Of a DNA stretch of 64,000 nt, positions 2,720 through 56,941 are shown piece after piece; position 1 is the stretch's first letter; every line of letters starts with the position of its first letter. The DNA is from a virus. Its lineage: Duplodnaviria; Heunggongvirae; Uroviricota; Caudoviricetes. The translations under genes and the position numbers were made by a program. The stretch lies in the IMG/VR virus record IMGVR_UViG_3300045988_150439; one strand, given 5' to 3'. The notes below the pieces were generated by a model. That model had not been told where the DNA came from, searched no databases, and saw only the letters and a program-made list of their open reading frames with translations.

Positions 2720-3241
2720 TTATTCTTCGAACAATTTTTCGATAGATTTTGTAGGATAGAACAAAGAACGCTCGTTGTTACCAACCAGCTGGATAAAGCC
2801 TAAACTTTTATAAAACGCCTTGGCTTTGTCATTTAACGCCTCAACGAAAAGTCCATGAATGCCTACAGCAAGAGATGCATTGTACACAACGCGCATTGCA
2901 TGTGTTACAAGCATTGAGCCAAATCCTTGACCTTGAAGGGACTTGTCCAAAGCCAGCCTACCCAAAGTAACACTTGGAACATTCCGATAAGGAACCTTCT
3001 TTTGTTTGCTTCTTGAAGGTAAGGACTCCTTTTCAAAACAACTACCTGACAAAGTGTAATATCCTAACACTTTTGGCCTTTCTTCTTGAGTGCAAAGCAC
3101 ATAAGCACGAAGAATTTTTCCCTCATGCTGCCTTTTTAAGTGGTTGGCTAAAAAGGCGTTTAGTGACTCTTCGCCGCAATCAAAACCGTTTAGATCATAA
3201 TCTTTCTCTCCAGAGAAAATCTCTATCGTTGTATTGCTCAC
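2720..3241 (-). CDS. GNAT-family acetyltransferase toxin (TacT/AtaT-like)
   Basis: 173 aa, GNAT motif QGQGFGSMLV; GTG start 8 nt after the stop of a DUF1778-type gene on the same strand. Confidence 0.7.
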   Translation of the reverse strand: MSNTTIEIFSGEKDYDLNGFDCGEESLNAFLANHLKRQHEGKILRAYVLCTQEERPKVLGYYTLSGSCFEKESLPSRSKQKKVPYRNVPSVTLGRLALDKSLQGQGFGSMLVTHAMRVVYNASLAVGIHGLFVEALNDKAKAFYKSLGFIQLVGNNERSLFYPTKSIEKLFEE

Positions 3242-3248
3242 GAGTAAA

Positions 3249-3518
3249 CTACTCCATGCTTTTCAGACGATCAGCAGCTCGTTTCAGCTTGTCGTTCGGT
3301 GCCGGAGGATTGCTTATAGCGTCCATAACCAGATTCCAGGATTCTTCATTCAGAACTAGTCTACGGTGTTGCTCTATAACTTTCACGGCACGTTCAGATG
3401 CACTGCTAACCATAAACTGAGTAATGCTCTGGTTAGACATTGCGGCAGCTTCCTCGATGATGCTTTTATCGTCATCGGTTAATCTCAAATCGATGCGCTG
3501 CTTTTTTAGTGCTGACAT
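3249..3518 (-). CDS. DUF1778-type ribbon-helix-helix antitoxin (TacA/AtaR-like)
   Basis: ORF 3249..3557; probable ATG 3518 follows GGAGG. About 89 aa with KKQRIDLRL strand then helices and PPAPN tail; precedes the GNAT gene. Confidence 0.65.
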   Translation of the reverse strand: MSALKKQRIDLRLTDDDKSIIEEAAAMSNQSITQFMVSSASERAVKVIEQHRRLVLNEESWNLVMDAISNPPAPNDKLKRAADRLKSME

Positions 3519-3836
3519 GTATTCCTCCTGATGGCCGTGATATAGGAAGGCCATCAATCTCCTCTGTTCAAACTGAGTTTTCGACTCAAAAATTACTTTA
3601 AAAGGCTATAGCCCATTACGTGTGCATTATCAAATTGTGTACGGCATATCACCGTACTTGTAATATAGAGGTCATTGTTACTTTTTTCAACAGGCAAATA
3701 CAAGCAATGATTGCCAATTGTTAACCACAACCTACCATTTTACCTTTACACCGCAGCCGTAGGCATTTAGGCTATATCACATATAAGAAAACAAGTTGTT
3801 TCAGACGATAATTATATACGCAAAGGGAACTCTCCA

Positions 3837-4505
3837 ATGACCAAGATCTTTGTGGTTGGCGGCACAAAGGGCGGGCCTGGCAAATCCACCGTTGCCCAGC
3901 AAATTGCCGTTTGCCTGAAAGTCAAAAAGAAGAAGAAGGTTTATATCACTGATATAGATATTCAGCGCACGACAACAAGCTGGTGTGAAGACCGTCGACA
4001 GAACGAAGATCTTGAGCTGATTCCTTTTGCATACGTTCAGGATGACATCATTAAGCACCTAAAATCGCTTCAGGGTAGAGCTGAGTTTGTAGTGGTAGAT
4101 GCTGGTGGCTTCGACTCCGAAATTCAGCGACAAGCGATGCTGATGGCTGACGTTATCATTATCCCGCTGCGTCCTAAGCGTCGTGATTTGAAATCTTTAC
4201 GTGACATCGATCCTATTATCGACAATGTTCGCAATGTAAACGATAAAGTGAAGGTCCGCGCGGTCATGAACCAGTGCCCGGCTTTGCCATCACAAGTGTC
4301 TCGCATTCTGGCGGCTAAAGAGATTGTTGAGACGTTTGGAATCGAGTCTGCGCCAGTCAATCTATATAACCGCAACGTCTATGATGATGCGGAAGAGTCT
4401 GGTCGTTCTATCTTTGAAATGACCGGTAGCGAGCGCGACAAAAAGGCGGAAGCCGAGTTTGAAGAATTTGTAGATTATCTGTTGAGTCTGGAGGAAGAAG
4501 AATAA
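3837..4505 (+). CDS. parA: ParA/Soj-type partition ATPase
   Basis: Deviant Walker A GGTKGGPGKST at N-terminus; 222 aa; stop overlaps start of downstream gene (TAATG). Confidence 0.8.
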   Translation: MTKIFVVGGTKGGPGKSTVAQQIAVCLKVKKKKKVYITDIDIQRTTTSWCEDRRQNEDLELIPFAYVQDDIIKHLKSLQGRAEFVVVDAGGFDSEIQRQAMLMADVIIIPLRPKRRDLKSLRDIDPIIDNVRNVNDKVKVRAVMNQCPALPSQVSRILAAKEIVETFGIESAPVNLYNRNVYDDAEESGRSIFEMTGSERDKKAEAEFEEFVDYLLSLEEEE

Positions 4506-4864
4506 TGTCCATGAAAATGGGTGACCTAGCAAAGCGCAAAGAGCCTGATGCACCGGCTAAGAACACAACTCCTTTGCGCCAACCAGTCAGACCACAGGGA
4601 CGCCCGACTCGTGGCAAAGAGAAAATTAAAAGCCGCACAATGTCACTGGAAGACGAATACTTCGAACTGCTGGAGATGATGAAGTTCATCCCTCGCTTCG
4701 AGAAGTTCACTCGTTCTGACGTGATTCGAGCAGCCATTTTCCATCTGGCAGAGAAGTCACCGCAGGAAATCGAGGACATCGTGAAGCTTAACGAGGCGAT
4801 CACAGCTGCCGACGTTACGATGCGTACCGATGAAATTAAACGAGAGTTGATGAAGAAAGGTTGA
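4505..4864 (+). CDS. small partition DNA-binding protein (ParG-like ribbon-helix-helix)
   Basis: 119 aa; basic N-terminus then RHH-like segment RTMSLEDEYFELLEMM...RSDVIRAAI; translationally coupled to parA. Confidence 0.5.
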   Translation: MSMKMGDLAKRKEPDAPAKNTTPLRQPVRPQGRPTRGKEKIKSRTMSLEDEYFELLEMMKFIPRFEKFTRSDVIRAAIFHLAEKSPQEIEDIVKLNEAITAADVTMRTDEIKRELMKKG

Positions 4865-4867
4865 TTA

Positions 4868-4890
4868 TATTGGGCGTTTGTTACGCCCAA
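4868..4890. repeat. perfect inverted repeat ttgggcgt / acgcccaa (hairpin or protein-binding site)
   Basis: Read directly; lies between the par operon and the AT-rich KAP gene. Confidence 0.4.
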
Positions 4891-4915
4891 TATATGAATT
4901 AAAGGATTGATACTA

Positions 4916-6610
4916 ATGGAATCGATAGAATCATTTCTAAAAAATTTTCTAGTTTCAGATCATCGGGTTGCCGTCATAAAAGGAGATTGGGGCGTTGGTA
5001 AAACTCATTATTGGAATAGTTTTTATACTAAGCATTCTGAAGGATTAGATTTTAATGCATATTCGTATGTTTCTTTGTTTGGGGTTAACTCTATTGGTGA
5101 TATTAAAAAAACTCTTTATCATTGTGCCACACCAATTAATGAAAAGAAATATAAAGAACTAATTTTATCTGAAACGGATCGAACTATGATTCGTTATAGA
5201 AATGGGTTTTGGGGATGGTTGAAATACAACTCCTTGTCAAAATTTTTAATACATTTCGGAAAGAACGATTTTTTTGGGTTCAAAACAGATAACCTGCTGT
5301 CATCTCTTGAGTATAAATTTGTTAATAATTATTTGGTTTGTATTGATGATGTTGAAAGAAAAGGTAATTCGCTAGAAGTTAAAGAAATTATGGGGGTAAT
5401 TGATGAATTAGCAAGAAGAAAAGGTTGCAAAGTTGTTCTAATTTTAAATGAAGATAATTTACATGATGAAACTGCAAAAAAACAGTTTTTAGAGTACAGA
5501 GAAAAAGTAATTGATGTCGAAATAAAATACGATCCTACGCCTGAGAAGAACTTACGTAAAGTTTTTTATGAAACTGATTCTGATTTTCTTTTGTTAAAAG
5601 TCTTAGCAAATGACTTAGGCATTAAAAATATCCGTATATTAAATAAAATAAAAACATCTCTGGTTAATCTTAGGAATGAGCTAAGCTTGGCAGAGGATAA
5701 GGTTAGAGAAAGTTTTATCAATAGATTGGTTCTGTTTTCAGTGGTTTACTATTCTGGTGTTCCAGGTGTTGATTATGCCTTGTTTAAAGAATCAATTAAA
5801 AACATACATGTATTTGATTACATGTTAGATGATAAAAAGGATGATTCTGTATATTCATTTATTAATAGTCTTGATATTATTTATGAACGAGCGGAAATTG
5901 CTTTCGATGATGACATAGATTTTTATCTCAAGAATGGTTATCTTTCTACTGAAAGCAATATTCGAGGTATAATAGAAGAAAAAAATAAACAATATAAAGA
6001 ACACAAGGCTTTATGTGAGGTTAACAATGTTTGGGATATTTTTAGTGACTCATTCAAGGACAATGAATCTGAGTTTATTTCTAAGATAAAATGTGTAATT
6101 AACGACAATCTTTCACACATACCTGTTGCTCACTTCATAGGCTTGATTGATATCTTAAATAGATTGTTGATTGATTGTGATAGTTATATAGAGGCATATG
6201 CAGATGCCTTTGTTAGCCAAGATGATGCTTATACTGCTTTTCGGAATTTGTATGTAGAGATATTTGGTAACGAAAAGTTAGGTCTGCTAATTCAAAAAAA
6301 ATTGATGGATAAGAAGCCTGAAGAGACTAATTTAGAGAATGTTTTATACAAAATAATTGAAGGCAAATTTAATCATAGTGACATAGCATATCTTAACAGT
6401 TTCTCTGAAGATGATTATTTAAAGTGGATATTATCCCGCAATCAGGATGCTTTGGATTTAGTGAGAAAGGGGTTGCTCAGATTCAAAAGTATGCAAGAAC
6501 TAACAGAAGAACAGCAAAAAATCACGAATAAAGCAATAGGTGCATTAACGAAACTGGCCTCTAGATCAAGTCTTAACAAACTACGTGTGAGCAGATTGCT
6601 TAATAATTAA
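4916..6610 (+). CDS. KAP-family P-loop NTPase
   Basis: ORF 4907..6610; ATG 4916 follows AAAGGA. Walker A GDWGVGKTHYW near N-terminus, DDVER Walker B-like; coding region clearly AT-rich relative to neighbours. Confidence 0.6.
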   Translation: MESIESFLKNFLVSDHRVAVIKGDWGVGKTHYWNSFYTKHSEGLDFNAYSYVSLFGVNSIGDIKKTLYHCATPINEKKYKELILSETDRTMIRYRNGFWGWLKYNSLSKFLIHFGKNDFFGFKTDNLLSSLEYKFVNNYLVCIDDVERKGNSLEVKEIMGVIDELARRKGCKVVLILNEDNLHDETAKKQFLEYREKVIDVEIKYDPTPEKNLRKVFYETDSDFLLLKVLANDLGIKNIRILNKIKTSLVNLRNELSLAEDKVRESFINRLVLFSVVYYSGVPGVDYALFKESIKNIHVFDYMLDDKKDDSVYSFINSLDIIYERAEIAFDDDIDFYLKNGYLSTESNIRGIIEEKNKQYKEHKALCEVNNVWDIFSDSFKDNESEFISKIKCVINDNLSHIPVAHFIGLIDILNRLLIDCDSYIEAYADAFVSQDDAYTAFRNLYVEIFGNEKLGLLIQKKLMDKKPEETNLENVLYKIIEGKFNHSDIAYLNSFSEDDYLKWILSRNQDALDLVRKGLLRFKSMQELTEEQQKITNKAIGALTKLASRSSLNKLRVSRLLNN

Positions 6611-6620
6611 GTATTCATGA

Positions 6621-6671
6621 CCTGTTTCTGTATATAAATAATAAGTAACTTATTAAATATACGGAAGCAGG
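6621..6671 (+). repeat. AT-loop hairpin element copy 1 (probable terminator)
   Basis: 15-bp stem cctgtttctgtatat / atatacggaagcagg with AT-rich loop; near-identical element at 56885..56941. Confidence 0.5.
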
Positions 6672-6788
6672 TCTTTCAAAAGATACCCACCAGAACAACT
6701 CCCTTCCGTTTCCACTTCCAAAAACTGCCACCAATCGCTATCATCAGCTCATTGTGATAAGTAAGTAACTACCTACCAGGTGAGCCAC

Positions 6789-7529
6789 ATGAGCCAAATC
6801 TTTTTCGACACCATCGACAACGACCAGTACGACTTCATGACAGAGTGGAATACCGCTGTTATGGATAAGTGGGTTGCTGAAAACATTGGTTTGTCGCGCT
6901 GCAAAGACGAGGCTGAACTCTTCGATACGAAGTGGTTTGATTACCGCGACATGCATCCTCTTATGGCCACCTGTCTGTTTACGGAGGCATACAAACGTCA
7001 GTACTCAAATATCATGCTGACGCACGGTCGCGAACACTTTGAAACAGCTCCGTTCACCACCGGGTTAAAACGCCTGCCTTATCAGGAGTTGTCGACTGCC
7101 AATAAAACGTCGCTATGGAAAGCACGCCAGTTTGCTGACCGCTATTGCTGCTCATACGACTACTTTATCTCCACCGTTCTTTCCGCAGCTGCACGACGTC
7201 TGTGGGACAAGCTGCCTCGCCCACAGCATTTGTGGCAGCCAGAACTGATTGAGATATTTGAAGAGAAATTAGCCAGACGCGCAACAACCCGTCTGGATGA
7301 CTCTCTGGTTAGCTTTAAGCATATAGGAGACATGCAGTTCAACCCGATCCAGGAAAGCTATTTTGAGTGGATTCTGGAGCGTTTACGCACCATCCCCCGC
7401 AGCAAGCGCATACGCGCAATTTTCTCCGCTATCTGGCTAATGGAAATCGTTCCAGAGCGCCTTATTTCCGCCCACTTTCCAGAAGAACTGGAAGAAGCAC
7501 GGCGGTTTATTGATCCCCTATCCAATTAA
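6789..7529 (+). CDS. hypothetical protein
   Basis: ORF 6780..7529; ATG 6789 follows AGGTGA; no motif recognised. Confidence 0.5.
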   Translation: MSQIFFDTIDNDQYDFMTEWNTAVMDKWVAENIGLSRCKDEAELFDTKWFDYRDMHPLMATCLFTEAYKRQYSNIMLTHGREHFETAPFTTGLKRLPYQELSTANKTSLWKARQFADRYCCSYDYFISTVLSAAARRLWDKLPRPQHLWQPELIEIFEEKLARRATTRLDDSLVSFKHIGDMQFNPIQESYFEWILERLRTIPRSKRIRAIFSAIWLMEIVPERLISAHFPEELEEARRFIDPLSN

Positions 7530-7572
7530 CTAATACTAGAAAACAATTTGTTTAAAAAACAAAGGAAAGCAC

Positions 7573-8913
7573 ATGACCGAACTTTGCCATACAGGACGCG
7601 GGCTGTCCGAAGAGTTTGATGAAGATTTCCAGAACAGACTGACGGCATATTTTTGTCGTGATCACGAGTTTCTTACTCGTGCGGGAGATCTGGTTGTGCC
7701 TAGCCAATTTGCCAATGCGGCCAATGCCATATTGGTTAATATGGTTTCGGGCTATTACCGTATGTACAAGAGCGCGCCCTCTTCATCTGCAATTCTGGAT
7801 ATGCTTAAGCGTGCGAAACGCGATAAGACTATCCGTGAGGAACTATTCGCCGATGTTGTTGCTGCGTTTAAGCGCATCCTTGCAGAAAAATTGTCCGATA
7901 CCTCGTACATGGTTGACCAGGTATCAACCTTCGCAAAAAGCGTAGCGTTTGATGATGCTCTGATTAAGGCTGCTGAACTGAAAGAGAAGGGCGACTTTCA
8001 GGGGGCGATGGCAATCATGGCCAAGGTTCAGCAGATTGGATCGAACGAAGCGACCGGAATCTATGACTACTACACCTCAGCAAGTGAGCGACTGAAAGCG
8101 CGTGAATATGAGGCCTCAGAGGAGTATGTGCCAAACAGTATTACAACTGGACTCCCTCTTCTCGATAGGTTGCTGTACCAAAAAGGCTGGGCAAAGCGCG
8201 AAATGGTGCTCTTCATGGGGTTCGCTAAATCCGGTAAATCGACCGCAATGGGTGAGTTTTCCATAAACGCAACGCTTGCTGGCTACAATGTTCTGTATCT
8301 CTCGCTGGAGGTTCACACCACCATTTTATCCGACCGTTTTGACGCAAGATTGTCGGAGACAGAAATGTCCAAGCTGGTGGAACGGCGCGATGAGGTTCAT
8401 CGTAAGTTGGCAGAGTTGGGAGCCACGAAGGGGATTGGTAGTTTGTGGGTGGTTGAGCGTCCGTCAGGAAGTATATCACCGGCAGATCTGGATCGTATGC
8501 TCAACAGCATGAAAGCCAATGGCATGGTGCCTGACATGGTTGTTGTCGACTACGCAGATTTGATGCGTGCCAGTTATGACCTTCGTGATGATCGCGCCAA
8601 CATTCGTAGTATCTACACCGATTTGCGTGCTCTTTATGACAAGCATAACGTTGCTGGGATCACGGCATCGCAGACAAACCGTGAAGGTGGCGCGTCAGAA
8701 GTTGCCACAATGATGCACGCTGCCGACAACATCGAAAAAGTACGTATTGCTGACCTGGTAATAACGATCAACAAAACCGAAGAAGAAGAAGCGAAAGGAG
8801 AGGCTCGTCTCTACTTTGCTGGTTCACGTAACCAGCAGGGAGGGATCAGCATTCGCGTTAAACAAAACCTCGAACAAATGCGCTTCATTGAGCGAATCTT
8901 AGACGTTACCTAA
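7573..8913 (+). CDS. DnaB-like replicative DNA helicase
   Basis: 446 aa; Walker A GFAKSGKST mid-protein, Walker B-like DMVVVDYADL, ASQTNREG region; primase gene follows. Confidence 0.7.
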   Translation: MTELCHTGRGLSEEFDEDFQNRLTAYFCRDHEFLTRAGDLVVPSQFANAANAILVNMVSGYYRMYKSAPSSSAILDMLKRAKRDKTIREELFADVVAAFKRILAEKLSDTSYMVDQVSTFAKSVAFDDALIKAAELKEKGDFQGAMAIMAKVQQIGSNEATGIYDYYTSASERLKAREYEASEEYVPNSITTGLPLLDRLLYQKGWAKREMVLFMGFAKSGKSTAMGEFSINATLAGYNVLYLSLEVHTTILSDRFDARLSETEMSKLVERRDEVHRKLAELGATKGIGSLWVVERPSGSISPADLDRMLNSMKANGMVPDMVVVDYADLMRASYDLRDDRANIRSIYTDLRALYDKHNVAGITASQTNREGGASEVATMMHAADNIEKVRIADLVITINKTEEEEAKGEARLYFAGSRNQQGGISIRVKQNLEQMRFIERILDVT

Positions 8914-14474: not shown

Positions 14475-14549
14475 GATGGTGTAGCTCAGCGGTAGAGCAG
14501 TTGGCTGTTAACCAACTGGTCGGTGGTTCGAATCCACCCACCATCGCCA
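14475..14549 (+). tRNA. tRNA-Asn (anticodon GTT)
   Basis: Cloverleaf by eye: acceptor gatggtg/caccatc, D-arm gctc..gagc, anticodon stem gttgg/ccaac loop ctGTTaa, T-arm ggtgg-ttcgaat-ccacc, encoded CCA. Confidence 0.85.
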
Positions 14550-14551
14550 AT

Positions 14552-14627
14552 GCCGGTTTAGCTCAGTTGGTAGAGCACCTGCCTTGTAAGCAGGATGTCA
14601 GCGGTTCGATCCCGTTAACCGGCACCA
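14552..14627 (+). tRNA. tRNA-Thr (anticodon TGT)
   Basis: Acceptor gccggtt/aaccggc, anticodon stem cctgc/gcagg loop ctTGTaa, T-loop ttcgatc, encoded CCA. Confidence 0.85.
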
Positions 14628-14720
14628 ACACAACAGGTAAGAGCATTGGGCGAATCGGCGATACTGACCCACAAGCCCGTAAATCGATAGAGTCAGACCA
14701 GTGCTCTTACCGTTGTGAGG
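14626..14720 (+). ncRNA. long hairpin unit 1 (possible small stable RNA)
   Basis: 15-bp stem acaacaggtaagagca / tgctcttaccgttgt (one mismatch) enclosing ~55 nt; shares stem-base cacaac/gttgtg with units 0 and 2. Confidence 0.3.
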
Positions 14721-14764
14721 AAGTGCAGCTCTTTGAAGCAACCAGAAGATAAGCATCTGGCTTC

Positions 14765-14850
14765 ACAACACAACGATAAGATCATTACGGTTAATCGTCG
14801 TTCATGTGCACAATGACTGGTCGAAAGGTAGTGATCTTACCGTTGTGATG
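14765..14850 (+). ncRNA. long hairpin unit 2 (possible small stable RNA)
   Basis: 16-bp stem cacaacgataagatca / tgatcttaccgttgtg (one mismatch); 3' flank cttaccgttgtga[g/t]gaa shared with unit 1. Confidence 0.3.
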
Positions 14851-14947
14851 AATGCACAGGCTGATGTGCCGCAACTACAGTAGTGCGCGCTTTGCGGGGC
14901 TTGCTACAACCCTGTGTCGGAGTTCAGCACCGACCATCACAATAGCT

Positions 14948-15034
14948 GGAGAGTAGGGAGCATGGTGCTCAAGCGGTCTTGAAAACCGTCCCATTGCGCA
15001 AGCGATGATGGTTCGATTCCATTACTCTCCGCCA
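14948..15034 (+). tRNA. tRNA-Ser (anticodon TGA), type II
   Basis: Acceptor ggagagt/actctcc, anticodon stem gcggt/accgt loop ctTGAaa, long variable arm, T-loop ttcgatt, encoded CCA; about 87 nt. Confidence 0.75.
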
Positions 15035-15212: not shown

Positions 15213-16424
15213 TCAAAAAAGTTTTATAAATTCATAATTCTGGTCAATTAAGGATTCAATACACACCATGCAAAAATCTACATCGTTAAAATCAGGTGTG
15301 TAATATTCATCCTCATAACATTCATTTAGACCTTCAATCAATTTTTCTTTAAAAACTCCCCACGTTTCAATATGAACCATTTCCATATAAGGCGCATGTG
15401 TATGTACTTGCAATACATCCCAGGTGTCTATAACCTCGATCCGCGGCTTGCAATTAATTTTTTCTAAATATGCCCTCCCAGAATTGTAAATTTTCGACAT
15501 TGATGCCCCAAAACCTGATGGTTGGTAATGAGTGTAAATGTCATAAATTTTTTGTCCTATTCTAGGGAGTTGAGAAGCATTGGATATTTGTGGCGAATGA
15601 AAGTATCGCTCTATGGAAGAAAACGCAGAAACATTAACTAGAGTAATCGTATATGGTGCTAAAGTTCTCTCGTTCAAATTTCTACATAAAATAGCAAACC
15701 CATGGCTATTAGTCTTTTCACCGTCTGAGGACATTTTTGCCATGCTGGCTTTAATAACATTCAATTTCGAATGTAAACGAGAAGTGGAAGTCGGTTGATT
15801 ATACATTTCATCATCATACAAACATATATGAAACCCGCCAAGATGACGAAATGAGAACTTGAGTGCTTCTTCCGCAATAACTAATTTATTAATATCTAAA
15901 GGAGTAAGTGATACGTTACCTTGTAAATCATAGCAAGGTTCTAAACATAGAAAGTTTTTCTTCTGCCACACAATCATATTAAAAATAAAGTGTCTAACCA
16001 AAGGTGGCCAGTCAGGTGATATAAGTACATTGGTAATATCTCCATCAGACAAGTATGACAAGTAACTTTTTAGTTCCGCAGCATATGCCACTAGCTCAGT
16101 TCCAGCTTCCCTTGTTGGTGTTGAAAAATTTTTTAACTCAATAAGAACTAAGGATTCATTCTCTGTTGAATAAGCAACGACATCAGGTCTTAATATCTCA
16201 GATTTTGTTGCTGAGATATTTTCATCATCTGTCATTAAATGTAACAATGTTATATTCTTTAAACAAAACTGATAACTCTCCTTAATTTTTTTCTCTTCGG
16301 GTCTTTTCGGATTAAATTCATTTAATTTATCAATATTGATGATTGAATTATATAATCCATCTTGATCAGATAATTTGTCAATTATCCAATTTTGCATTTC
16401 CTTTTCGCTTAAAAATATTGACAC
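15213..16424 (-). CDS. 403-aa protein with PD-(D/E)xK-like nuclease motif; distal gene of AT-rich two-gene cassette (AbiGii position)
   Basis: GTG start; PDVVAY...SLVLIELK resembles a D..ExK restriction-endonuclease-fold motif; very AT-rich; 26 nt from upstream gene. Confidence 0.45.
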   Translation of the reverse strand: MSIFLSEKEMQNWIIDKLSDQDGLYNSIINIDKLNEFNPKRPEEKKIKESYQFCLKNITLLHLMTDDENISATKSEILRPDVVAYSTENESLVLIELKNFSTPTREAGTELVAYAAELKSYLSYLSDGDITNVLISPDWPPLVRHFIFNMIVWQKKNFLCLEPCYDLQGNVSLTPLDINKLVIAEEALKFSFRHLGGFHICLYDDEMYNQPTSTSRLHSKLNVIKASMAKMSSDGEKTNSHGFAILCRNLNERTLAPYTITLVNVSAFSSIERYFHSPQISNASQLPRIGQKIYDIYTHYQPSGFGASMSKIYNSGRAYLEKINCKPRIEVIDTWDVLQVHTHAPYMEMVHIETWGVFKEKLIEGLNECYEDEYYTPDFNDVDFCMVCIESLIDQNYEFIKLF

Positions 16425-16450
16425 TAATTAGGCTCCCGTTAAACCAAAAA

Positions 16451-17272
16451 TTAAAAATCTTGCTTTACTTTATCCATAGTCAGAATTTTGCTAATAATTG
16501 AAGATTCAAATCCATCTAAACCTGAGAGAAAGTTAATTAGCTTTTGGATATGTTGTTCTTTAGGTATAAGTATATATTTTATATCATTGAACTCAAAATC
16601 AATGCCAAACTTTGAAAATTTTGAGCTAATTTTTGCTTTGTCATCAGAAGTGATAACACGCTCCAAACTCAGACTAGGCCATAAATCACCAATAAAAGGA
16701 GCTGGCACATAACGCCACTCTTTCTCGTCTGCATATATATAATTCTCTATTGTTTTATTATCTTTTCGCTCTAGCTTGCCTCTGTAATTTTTCATATAAC
16801 GCAGTAAATTATATAGATCAGAATATTCTGCTTTCAATTTCTCAAACTCTATTCTGTTTTTGGTATCTAAATTTCCTCTAGCCTTCCAAAGCGGCACCAA
16901 CTTTTTTTTAATAAGTCGAATTCTGGCATTGTATTTAGAAAATATTTCACTGCTCTTATTCATATATAGAACTGGGTGTAGACCTTTCTTTTCCGCCCAA
17001 GACTTAGTTAGCCCAAGACCGAATTCCCCATATTTTCCGCTATGATCTCTGATTTGTGATAGTTTTATGTCACAAAACGATACCATTGGTACTGCAAACC
17101 TCCTGCGTCCCCCGACTCCTCTTATTTCCTCGCGAGCAAGAAATGGTTTAAAATATTTCTCAGCCAATATGCTATAGAAAGCATCTTCGTTTTTTGTAAA
17201 ATGAAACAACGTGGTTGGATGAAGACTATAAACAGATTCAACATTCGCATCAGGATTTTCAAGGATAGTCAT
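16451..17272 (-). CDS. AbiGi-like protein (candidate abortive-infection component)
   Basis: ORF 16451..17317; probable ATG 17272 follows AAGGTG. N-terminal LFHFTKNEDAFYSIL...PMVSFCDIKL...YGEFGLGL pattern resembles what I recall of AbiGi proteins; AT-rich. Confidence 0.4.
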   Translation of the reverse strand: MTILENPDANVESVYSLHPTTLFHFTKNEDAFYSILAEKYFKPFLAREEIRGVGGRRRFAVPMVSFCDIKLSQIRDHSGKYGEFGLGLTKSWAEKKGLHPVLYMNKSSEIFSKYNARIRLIKKKLVPLWKARGNLDTKNRIEFEKLKAEYSDLYNLLRYMKNYRGKLERKDNKTIENYIYADEKEWRYVPAPFIGDLWPSLSLERVITSDDKAKISSKFSKFGIDFEFNDIKYILIPKEQHIQKLINFLSGLDGFESSIISKILTMDKVKQDF

Positions 17273-17561
17273 TTTACACCTTGTGGAAAGCCAGTTTAGT
17301 TCTGTAAATAGTATCACACGACAGGCGGCTATTCTTCTATCAATAAAGGATAGGTAAGCACTTACTTTTTACGCGCGTTAATTGTATAGTTCTTTCGGAT
17401 ACTCACTTGAAAGGACTCAATATGGGAAATAAATGTAAACATGCGCGTCGCGCATCTCGTCAGGTGCAGAAGTCAAATCCATACATTCACGAGCACTACC
17501 ACCTCAGCTCTTTCACTAACCGCTACACGTTCCCCAGCGAAGCGCATAACGAGGCAAGGCA

Positions 17562-56884: not shown

Positions 56885-56941
56885 CCTGCTTCTGTATATA
56901 TATAAATAACTACATATTAATTATTAATATACGGAAGCAGG
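56885..56941 (+). repeat. AT-loop hairpin element copy 2
   Basis: Stem cctgcttctgtatat / atatacggaagcagg; matches element at 6621..6671. Confidence 0.5.

Follow-up and report, generated by a model that had tools for sequence, protein, structure and literature searches.

Our analyses suggest that, on balance, the KAP-family gene described here is a horizontally acquired accessory cargo of a defence-gene hotspot, most likely encoding a single-protein, PifA-like immunity factor, a function that we infer. The window, i.e., the whole 64,000-nt stretch of DNA analysed, is an SSU5-like E. coli phage-plasmid, and the gene occupies a slot between its partition and replication modules.

Location and Composition of the KAP Gene

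The locus is organized as follows.

3837-4505, plus strand: parA, left flank (part of 3837..4864)
4505-4864, plus strand: 119-aa parB-like gene, phrog_5111, left flank
4865..6618, plus strand: whole cargo cassette, from the parB-like stop codon to the conserved backbone hairpin (alignments, locus survey)
4866..4894, plus strand: cassette-specific stem-loop, perfect 12-bp stem, 5-nt loop (dG -17.9, z -6.1)
4901..4906, plus strand: Shine-Dalgarno-like AAAGGA, 9 nt 5' of the ATG, as read from the sequence
4916..6610, plus strand: KAP gene (divergent KAP-family P-loop NTPase, phrog_4740), 564 aa
6619..6673, plus strand: conserved backbone stem-loop closing the slot, terminator-like (core 6621-6671; dG -28.7, z -8.0)
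6780..7529, plus strand: conserved 249-aa phrog_2500 gene, head of the helicase/primase module, right flank

The open reading frame spans 4907 (TTG)/4916 (ATG)..6610 on the plus strand, and the start at ATG 4916 gives 564 aa, the length common to all database copies. The sequence-only reading had described a 564-aa protein with an N-terminal Walker A, encoded in an AT-rich island, and both points hold: GDWGVGKT is intact at residues 23-30, and the GC content of the gene is 30.5% (GC3 25%), compared with 46-49% (GC3 45-57%) for parA, the parB-like gene, phrog_2500, dnaB, primase and ligase. Indeed, the gene is the lowest-GC 1.7-kb stretch within the 64-kb window, approximately 4.3 SD under the mean. 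Genes of this family showed foreign composition in five hosts and were AT-rich in every host examined, and the KAP gene is always solitary.

No convincing promoter of the KAP gene emerged from a promoter/terminator scan (none promoter-like upstream of 4907 on the plus strand). Because of this, and because only 21 nt separate the left hairpin from the ATG, parAB is the probable source of transcription entering the cassette. An Rfam search of positions 4400-7000 revealed no real RNA family, the two matches both being far below the gathering score.

Cassette Borders and Hairpins

Alignments with Cyrano, PhiR41_1 and SSU5 demonstrated that similarity ends exactly past the parB-like stop and returns at the right hairpin, and identical cassette borders were observed in 74 resolved IMG/VR loci. 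The left stem-loop lies directly 3' of the parB-like stop with no T-run behind it, and all other cargo classes carry their own, different hairpin at this position. An inverted repeat had previously been noted here at 4868-4890; it is present, but those limits are slightly too narrow, the actual ones being 4866-4894. As for the right hairpin, the earlier observation of a conserved element at 6621-6671 that recurs at 56885 was correct, yet this element belongs to the backbone and not to the KAP cassette. It was found in 241 PLSDB plasmids, only 23 of which have the KAP gene, and it is also kept in relatives with other cargo. Its related copy at 56885-56941, where the chance expectation is 0 matches, follows a Dam methylase gene, in a region that does not vary. 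Neither hairpin was scored as a canonical terminator in the promoter/terminator scan. We also considered the two hairpins as terminal repeats of a mobile cassette and rejected this, as their sequences are unrelated and the right one is backbone; the hairpins are no evidence for a mobile cassette of that kind.

The Slot as a Cargo Hotspot

Across the 74 resolved IMG/VR loci and the reference phages, the slot between parB and the replication module holds at least 12 interchangeable cassettes and also occurs as an empty site. PD-T4-3 (GIY-YIG; PADLOC 1.6e-23) occupies it at 25 loci, and other cargos include PD-T7-5 with DUF2971 (4.5e-139), several DUF2971/PDC-S31 cassettes, an uncharacterised 357-aa gene, two-gene membrane cassettes and a lipoprotein. 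The KAP gene was present at 6 of the 74 loci, and the slot was empty (29-30 nt) at 4 loci. PD-T4-3 and PD-T7-5 are listed as antiphage systems, attributed to Vassallo et al. 2022 (review PMC10952713), and DefenseFinder reports both in E. coli/Shigella SSU5 phage-plasmids (bioRxiv 10.1101/2025.09.12.675607). Furthermore, homologues with 40-44% identity fill the equivalent slot in Klebsiella and Salmonella phage-plasmids, where the flanking proteins are 86-93% identical.

The sequence-only reading would have been undermined by a gene conserved in all relatives with native-like composition. Instead, the KAP gene is found in 8-10% of slots (23 of the 241 PLSDB relatives), is missing from about 90% of relatives and is foreign in composition. 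This presence/absence pattern largely refutes another explanation, namely that the protein serves replication or partition as an accessory ATPase (an AAA+ initiator, a loader or a target-selector-like protein) and is sited between par and helicase/primase for joint action; we regard this as extremely improbable. A core replication or partition role was rejected on the same comparison.

Motifs, Family Matches and Predicted Structure

The following features were recognized in the KAP protein.

4982..5005, plus strand: Walker A GDWGVGKT, residues 23-30
5138..5314, plus strand: variable low-confidence insertion in the NTPase domain between Walker A and Walker B, residues 75-133
5345..5359, plus strand: Walker B, KAP-type DDxER (D144 D145 V146 E147 R148)
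5687..6607, plus strand: C-terminal all-alpha solenoid-like domain, putative sensor/specificity module, residues 258-564

Catalytic residues were all invariant across 41 family members sharing 27-77% identity, comprising G23, W25, G26, G28, K29 and T30 of Walker A and D144, D145, E147 and R148 of Walker B, where CIDDVER is kept throughout; N178, R195 and R240 are also conserved. In the insertion, by comparison, identity among homologues falls to 15-35%, and residues 95-127 have pLDDT below 50. KAP-family membership, proposed at first from the Walker A motif, was confirmed by HMM search: Pfam KAP_NTPase PF07693 matched residues 12-254 (model 12-278/293) with 24.8 bits against a gathering cutoff of 20 (E 1.6e-5), and a precomputed PF07693 match exists in nearly all of the 120 homologues listed. 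Judged by this marginal score, the protein is a divergent member of the family. It matched phrog_4740, annotated as 'unknown function', over its full length (E 8.4e-166, residues 1-564, model 3-626/627).

The structure is predicted to combine an AAA+/STAND-like NTPase with an alpha-solenoid fold, and the helical or superhelical region that follows the NTPase in the KAP family is present. No transmembrane helix was detected in the whole protein (maximum Kyte-Doolittle 19-residue mean 1.4, located outside residues 75-133). Many KAP members have such helices near the NTPase domain, but the feature is not obligatory, and PifA is without them too. The predicted structure contained no effector fold (no nuclease, NADase, protease or pore domain). 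PDB sequence searches with the whole protein or the C-domain profile returned nothing meaningful, the Foldseek matches among viral structures were all of the generic AAA+ kind, and no family was assigned by NCBIfam. STAND membership would call for a specific profile and a fused effector domain, and neither was found: no STAND Pfam family matched at E <= 0.01, and structural likeness to NLRs and Avs5 was no stronger than to Cdc6/ORC.

Homologues and Their Neighbourhoods

Outside the phage-plasmids, one homologue occupies the gpA-gpQ interval of a P2-like prophage, a site known as the old/tin defence hotspot (PMC9122126), and others were observed in a Mu-like prophage, inside an ICE transfer cluster and adjoining a DUF2971 gene. 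The nearest two ORFs per side in 35 species genomes matched 232 PADLOC families at E <= 1e-5, compared with 27 families for 140 control ORFs located 8-10 kb off in the same loci; this test is crude, with naive ORF calling and with families rather than proteins being counted (one ATPase can match many models). The neighbour matches include Dsr1 (3e-126), PtuA (4e-151) with PtuB, AriA and PDC-S31. By this crude test, the family is non-randomly associated with known defence genes and hotspots, and several homologues stand alone amid housekeeping genes without a defence neighbour. The proposal that this is a candidate single-gene defence or conflict gene is thus backed by PD-T4-3 and PD-T7-5 sharing the slot, by the homologues in P2-like, Mu-like and ICE contexts, and by the neighbour enrichment.

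Of 185,579 species genomes, 341 contain the family; these range from Proteobacteria to Cyanobacteria and Verrucomicrobia and include one archaeon. Approximately 1,700 clusters (50% identity) match the C-domain profile, and the full-size proteins among the 150 best listed clusters are all of one architecture. Nothing about the KAP protein turned up in the literature under PDC-S49, the WP accessions, phrog_4740 or pWPMR2, and we came across no paper that names the family.

Alleles, Selection and a CRISPR Spacer

Between the KAP gene and a second E. coli allele, WP_061093507, dN/dS was 0.17-0.33 and dS varied from 0.13 to 0.86 along the gene. These dN/dS values indicate purifying selection, and positive selection between the two alleles was looked for but not demonstrable, since dN/dS was below 1 everywhere. 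The 3' third is just 68-75% identical between the alleles, in backbones that are 96-100% identical; judging from the sequences, the divergence looks like mosaic recombination combined with relaxed 3' constraint.

These data bear on whether the gene just rides along in the element, silenced or decaying and currently without function. H-NS prefers AT-rich DNA, so the extreme AT-richness of the gene makes it a likely H-NS target; the gene is also without its own promoter, and a stop after codon 164 makes a pseudogene of at least one copy in S. sonnei, so that the gene is dispensable there. However, the window carries an unbroken ORF, as do hundreds of contigs at >= 99% identity, and the dN/dS values, the invariant catalytic residues of the 41 members, the some 1,700 clusters matching the C-domain profile and the single architecture of the full-size proteins among the 150 best listed all argue against decay, which renders this explanation very unlikely.

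In addition, the gene contains a CRISPR target.

5613-5644 (with PAM 5610..5644), plus strand: protospacer with ATG PAM at 5610-5612, perfect spacer match

The perfectly matching spacer is held by E. coli type I-E CRISPR2 arrays, showing that hosts treat the carrier as an invader. Together with the finding that carriers are almost exclusively mobile elements (phage-plasmids, P2-like and Mu-like prophages, ICE), this may favour a weapon or shield in mobile-element competition, whereby the gene would exclude rival SSU5-like phage-plasmids or conjugative plasmids, or would act in counter-defence and aid establishment; SSU5-group phage-plasmids have indeed been reported with anti-defence genes, e.g., Rad. 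Nevertheless, the alternative cargos of the slot are anti-phage nucleases, not anti-defence genes, and chromosomal homologues adjoin components of Dsr1, Septu and PARIS. Anti-defence proteins are usually small, and a 564-aa NTPase-plus-sensor layout is typical of immune sensors. We therefore consider a competition role unlikely, although its difference from defence cargo is partly semantic, because prophage-borne defences serve the element too.

Comparison With Known Systems

The sequence-only reading held KAP NTPases of mobile elements to be poorly characterised; they are somewhat better known than that, through PifA and four antiphage KAP-fusion proteins (PMC13552941). First, PifA of the F plasmid is a KAP protein free of transmembrane helices that aborts infection by T7, the membrane becoming depolarised and nucleotides leaking out (PMC13001434). 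Like PifA, the protein here is a plasmid-borne single KAP_NTPase protein that lacks both transmembrane helices and any recognisable effector domain, and its DD-x-(D/E)-R Walker B and long helical C-terminal part are features of PifA as well. It is not an ortholog, however: the hhalign alignment with PifA was limited to 71 columns surrounding Walker B (probability 36%), DDxER and MDDLDR being the only stretch aligned, and homology beyond the shared NTPase motifs was not found. Moreover, PifA scores 148 bits against PF07693 compared with 24.8 bits for the KAP protein; it is 741 aa long, its gene shares an operon with that of the repressor PifC, and the two C-termini are unrelated. No PifA model came up in PADLOC at E <= 1.

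Second, the antiphage KAP-fusion proteins (PMC13552941) likewise consist of one polypeptide with an N-terminal KAP NTPase, and their C-terminal region has no known domain or structural match. Both parts of EF_KAP, as well as its Walker B, are required for defence (PMC13552941). They are, however, Firmicutes proteins encoded beside small serine recombinases, with two transmembrane helices in the case of EF_KAP, whereas the protein here is soluble, proteobacterial and part of its own family with a conserved solenoid; it is set apart from them by their description.

Third, the best and sole defence-database match was PADLOC PDC-S49 (7e-22), itself an unvalidated single-gene candidate (~620 aa) on which we found no paper. 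Its N-terminal NTPase is homologous, but the alignment covers residues 3-223 only (model 8-214/624), and the C-terminal half lies outside it and is not common to both. Antiviral STAND NTPases (Avs/NLR-like) and RADAR RdrA are also among the closest known systems. Finally, Tmn, a YobI-family membrane P-loop NTPase in which ATP turnover itself adds to the antiviral state (PMC13001434), is similar as a single-gene NTPase with solenoid-like sensor arms, the defence function being inferred in the present case. Tmn belongs to a different family and forms a membrane-embedded decamer, whereas the KAP protein has no membrane helices, and no Tmn model was returned by PADLOC.

Proposed Function and Significance

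As defence cargo, an immunity factor of this type would shield the lysogen, and hence the plasmid-prophage, against other phages or other mobile elements. Transcription in the plasmid state would come from parAB read-through. The solenoid would bind a phage- or MGE-encoded protein, and binding would switch the NTPase, whether by exchanging or hydrolysing nucleotide or by oligomerising, in the manner of AAA+/STAND relatives, while the fast-diverging mosaic C-terminal half would set target specificity. Since no nuclease, NADase, protease or pore domain was found, the output might lie in uncontrolled consumption of NTPs, in an essential phage complex being sequestered or remodelled, or in an indirect collapse of membrane or energy state as in PifA. 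The killing or blocking step is conjecture, because the protein has no recognisable effector domain.

A bolder possibility, which we offer tentatively, is that the protein is the founding member of a widespread family of effector-less soluble immune sensors, in which the solenoid senses a protein of the invader and the KAP NTPase doubles as effector, either depleting nucleotides or forcing a viral complex to remodel. If this were true, the slot between parB and the replication module would be a previously undescribed exchange site trading immunity cassettes, and it could explain immunity cargo in epidemic Shigella sonnei/E. coli phage-plasmids that DefenseFinder scores as having no defence system.

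With respect to defence more broadly, the KAP gene is probably a further case of an already recognised type of immunity factor. If confirmed, it would be a named, mechanistically tractable addition to the small set of KAP-type defences, being one polypeptide that lacks a membrane part, with two natural E. coli alleles that differ mainly in the putative sensor half, and it would inform how NTPase-plus-solenoid proteins without an effector domain, PifA included, stop phages. Confirmation would also establish that SSU5-like phage-plasmids have a compact slot for defence cassettes and imply that current defence finders overlook cargo in them. Lineages of clinical importance in E. coli (O104:H4 among them) and Shigella sonnei harbour such phage-plasmids, which are relevant to phage therapy.

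Results

The window belongs to the SSU5-like phage-plasmids of E. coli. 'Escherichia phage CMS-2020a' (CP054387) matches window 3800-8000 over its whole length at 99% identity, and Cyrano, PhiR41_1 and SSU5 align to both sides of this interval but not to its middle. In the alignments, their similarity ends exactly at the stop codon of the parB-like gene (4864) and returns at a hairpin (~6619). The features of the interval are as follows.

4866-4894: perfect 12-bp stem-loop
4907 (TTG) or 4916 (ATG) to 6610, + strand: open reading frame of the KAP gene
residues 23-30 of the KAP protein: Walker A motif GDWGVGKT
6619-6673: long stem-loop, with a related copy at 56885-56941

An AAAGGA motif lies 9 nt ahead of the ATG at 4916, and this start yields 564 aa, as in all database copies. 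The GC content of the gene is 30.5% (GC3 25%), and that of parA, the parB-like gene, phrog_2500, dnaB, primase and ligase is 46-49% (GC3 45-57%). The sequence-only reading had described a KAP-family NTPase with an N-terminal Walker A in an AT-rich island, bounded by an inverted repeat and by a hairpin recurring at 56885. The Walker A motif is present, the gene is the lowest-GC 1.7-kb stretch within 64 kb, and all three stem-loops were recovered and fold far better than shuffled controls. Family membership was upheld as well, by a Pfam KAP_NTPase (PF07693) match to residues 12-254 that lies narrowly over the gathering score (24.8 vs 20 bits, E 1.6e-5).

A search of NCBIfam found no family for the protein. 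In PHROGs, phrog_4740 (labelled 'unknown function') matches it over the full length (8e-166), and the sole PADLOC match is the candidate PDC-S49 (7e-22), which covers residues 3-223 only. A search of 5.8 billion proteins returned 1,584 relatives, the top 120 of which are nearly all 560-600 aa long and carry PF07693. Across an alignment of 41 family members (27-77% identity), G23, W25, G26, G28, K29, T30, D144, D145, E147, R148, Y194, R195, E196, K197, N238, R240, K244, G341, W504 and R557 are invariant, and N178 is kept in at least 90%. On this evidence the catalytic apparatus is complete and conserved. A profile of the C-terminal half (residues 258-564), an all-alpha, solenoid-like putative sensor module, had matches in 1,699 clusters out of 1.84 billion representatives, 1,240 of them at E <= 1e-10. 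Every full-size protein among the best 150 matches listed has 540-600 aa and carries the domain from about residue 250 to the end, which suggests a single fixed architecture throughout the family. The KAP protein combines a conserved NTPase switch with a family-specific solenoid, and carries no effector fold or membrane anchor. When one genome per species was scanned, relatives were found in 341 of 185,579 species spread over many phyla, a patchy distribution that points to horizontal transfer.

We surveyed the slot between the parB-like gene and the long stem-loop in 80 IMG/VR loci fetched via the conserved phrog_2500 protein, and delimited it in 74; the slot is window 4865-6618 and its equivalents in L001-L003, L006 and L011-L090. 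The inserts clustered into at least 12 classes, and in 4 loci the slot was empty, with 29-30 nt.

Table. Cargo of the slot.
255-aa GIY-YIG protein, PD-T4-3: 25 IMG/VR loci; PADLOC 1.6e-23, Pfam LEM-3 GIY-YIG
357-aa gene: 17 IMG/VR loci; no family
DUF2971 (PADLOC PDC-S31), alone or with two membrane proteins: 14 loci in four classes (5, 5, 3, 1)
KAP gene: 6 IMG/VR loci plus the window
PD-T7-5 plus DUF2971: 4 IMG/VR loci; PADLOC 4.5e-139
two-gene membrane cassettes, a lipoprotein and a short 206-nt insert: 4 singletons

In SSU5-like phage-plasmids, the slot between the parB-like and phrog_2500 genes serves as a cargo hotspot. The review PMC10952713 lists PD-T4-3 and PD-T7-5 as antiphage systems and credits them to Vassallo et al. 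(2022), and an independent survey found both in SSU5-group phage-plasmids of E. coli/Shigella. In PLSDB, the hairpin region is present on 241 plasmids and the KAP gene on 23 of these (19 at >= 97.8% identity, 4 at ~83%); the gene occurs in 28 of 5,426 complete E. coli genomes, every time on ~110-kb plasmids. Carriers include p09EL50 of O104:H4. The gene is therefore clearly not conserved in all relatives, and with its 30.5% GC it is not native-like in composition either. The empty and alternative slots also contradict a role of the KAP gene in replication or partition.

Both edges of the slot are marked by hairpins. Nearly every cargo class brings its own strong, GC-cored and sequence-unrelated hairpin within 8 nt past the parB stop (dG -14 to -26 kcal/mol), many with a T-run afterwards; the exception is the three-gene cassette of SSU5 (L002), at -6.5. 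This was seen in window 4866-4894 and in the first 48 nt of cargo in loci L001, L003, L006, L024, L044, L045, L062, L063, L072, L086, L093 and L095. The left junction thus always lies between the stop codon and a class-specific hairpin, a pattern that might reflect either a required terminator of the par operon or the mode of cassette capture. In the window, the left hairpin has no T-run and stands only 21 nt from the ATG, and a promoter scan gave no promoter-like site ahead of the KAP gene. The simplest reading is that the gene would be transcribed by read-through from parAB, and hence expressed in the plasmid-prophage state.

At the right edge, the long stem-loop is kept from the E. coli elements through SSU5, followed by TCTTTC in the window and TCTTTT in relatives. 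It bounds the slot on this side and probably insulates the replication module. Its second copy lies 24 nt past the stop of the Dam methylase gene (56861), where relatives align without interruption at 97% identity, and the two share the arms CCTGYTTCTGTATAT ... ATATACGGAAGCAGG. The element looks terminator-like, although conservation of the arms at two loci could instead mark a protein-binding site.

SSU5-like phage-plasmids of Klebsiella and Salmonella carry 40-44%-identical KAP homologues in exactly the same slot, between parB-like and phrog_2500 proteins that are 86-93% identical. A Rahnella homologue (42%) in a P2-like prophage is flanked on one side by gpA, together with a TacAT-type toxin-antitoxin pair, and on the other by the portal gene. 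This position is the old/tin locus, shown to be a defence hotspot (Rousset et al., PMC9122126). Other homologues were found in a Mu-like prophage, among the clustered transfer genes of a Salmonella ICE, beside IS66, or alone amid housekeeping genes. In a Pseudomonadales MAG (JARGPR010000001.1), a DUF2971 gene follows the homologue ~100 nt downstream (L101/L104 11840-12613), so that two alternative cargos of the SSU5 slot are direct neighbours in a small islet of the chromosome. The KAP gene has no conserved partner in any of its settings, and it was far more AT-rich than its surroundings in five of five loci measured (e.g., 31% vs 55%, 27% vs 45% GC).

In a rough test of association across 35 species genomes, we then compared the two nearest ORFs per side (140 proteins) with the outermost two per side of the same loci, 8-10 kb off (140 proteins). 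Near ORFs matched 232 PADLOC families at E <= 1e-5 and control ORFs 27, chiefly type II methyltransferases, a contrast that overstates the effect, as ORF calling was naive and families rather than proteins were counted. The near matches, including Dsr1 (3e-126, two genomes), PtuA (4e-151) with PtuB, AriA, PDC-S31, PDC-M11A and PDC-S39, are unambiguously defence genes.

A second E. coli allele (L093, NZ_CP020118.1) sits in a backbone 96-100% identical to the window. Nucleotide identity between the two genes is 88-99% in the 5' part, falls to 68-75% in the final 600 nt and is back to 97% past the hairpin; the encoded proteins share 85-98% identity in the NTPase core and 66% in the solenoid, a gradient also seen in distant homologues. 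By the Nei-Gojobori method, dN/dS rises from 0.17 in the N-half to 0.25 in the C-half and 0.33 in the last 164 codons, and dS varies between 0.13 and 0.86 over the length of the gene. On these values the gene is functional and mosaic, and its putative sensor end evolves fastest; they indicate a recombinant history centred on the solenoid half. Purifying selection and the invariant catalytic residues contradict the view of the gene as a decaying hitch-hiker. Positive selection was not demonstrated between the two alleles (dN/dS below 1 throughout).

The KAP gene also contains a perfect match to a CRISPR spacer. The protospacer, directly preceded by a canonical ATG PAM (together 5610-5644, + strand), corresponds to a 32-nt spacer of E. 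coli O169:H41 F6326-C1 (L091 1501-1533), the second of 12 in its type I-E CRISPR2 array (queE/ygcF-ygcE interval), and the same 33-nt match occurs in four other chromosomes. The remaining spacers of this array had no match in the 64-kb window.

A second AT-rich island of the window (15213-17317, - strand, GC ~33-37%), beside tRNA-Asn/Thr/Ser (14475-15034), contains an AbiGi-family gene (288 aa, PADLOC 6.5e-47, PF10899) and, adjoining it upstream, a 403-aa partner that has no family match and is possibly an AbiGii analogue. Just upstream of parA lies a GNAT-toxin/TacA-antitoxin pair of the TacAT/KacAT type (2720-3557, - strand). The same pair occurs in Cyrano, and two unrelated genes occupy the site in SSU5, PhiR41_1 and the Klebsiella/Salmonella relatives. 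This makes the site a second variable slot, which flanks the par operon opposite the first.

Discussion

The sequence-only reading had proposed a candidate defence or conflict gene. Solitary cargo in defence hotspots and defence-gene neighbours support this proposal, which we hold to be somewhat better than an even chance. A role in inter-element competition or anti-defence is possible and overlaps with it.

In function, the nearest precedent is PifA of the F plasmid, a KAP protein with no TM helices and no effector domain. PifA aborts T7 infection, in the course of which the membrane is depolarised and nucleotides leak out. The two are not orthologues, as hhalign aligns the Walker B region only (36% probability). 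In EF_KAP, the one dissected among four KAP-fusion proteins shown to be antiphage, Walker B and an unknown region are both needed (PMC13552941). Based on these precedents and on an NTPase switch joined to a solenoid without effector, we tentatively propose a sensor-switch mechanism, which we rate as less likely than not: the solenoid would bind an invader protein, the NTPase would then change state or oligomerise, and the result might be a drain on NTP, a phage complex that is sequestered or remodelled, or a PifA-like energy collapse.

KAP-type single-gene defence is already recognised (PifA, EF_KAP and relatives, PADLOC PDC-S49), and the present family is an uncharacterised, divergent one within it. 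No description of the parB-replication slot of SSU5-like phage-plasmids was found in the literature searched, and its use as an exchange site for defence cassettes is possibly new at the descriptive level.

The KAP copy on a plasmid of Shigella sonnei 2015C-3807 (L092, CP022461.1) is interrupted, with the first stop after codon 164. NCBI names S. sonnei for a full-length protein of 99% identity (P0003) that is present on 928 contigs, and the protein is abundant in S. sonnei assemblies. According to a 2025 survey, DefenseFinder detects no defence system in pWPMR2-like phage-plasmids from clade K, an epidemic S. sonnei lineage; the KAP gene may be the cargo that went undetected in this clade.
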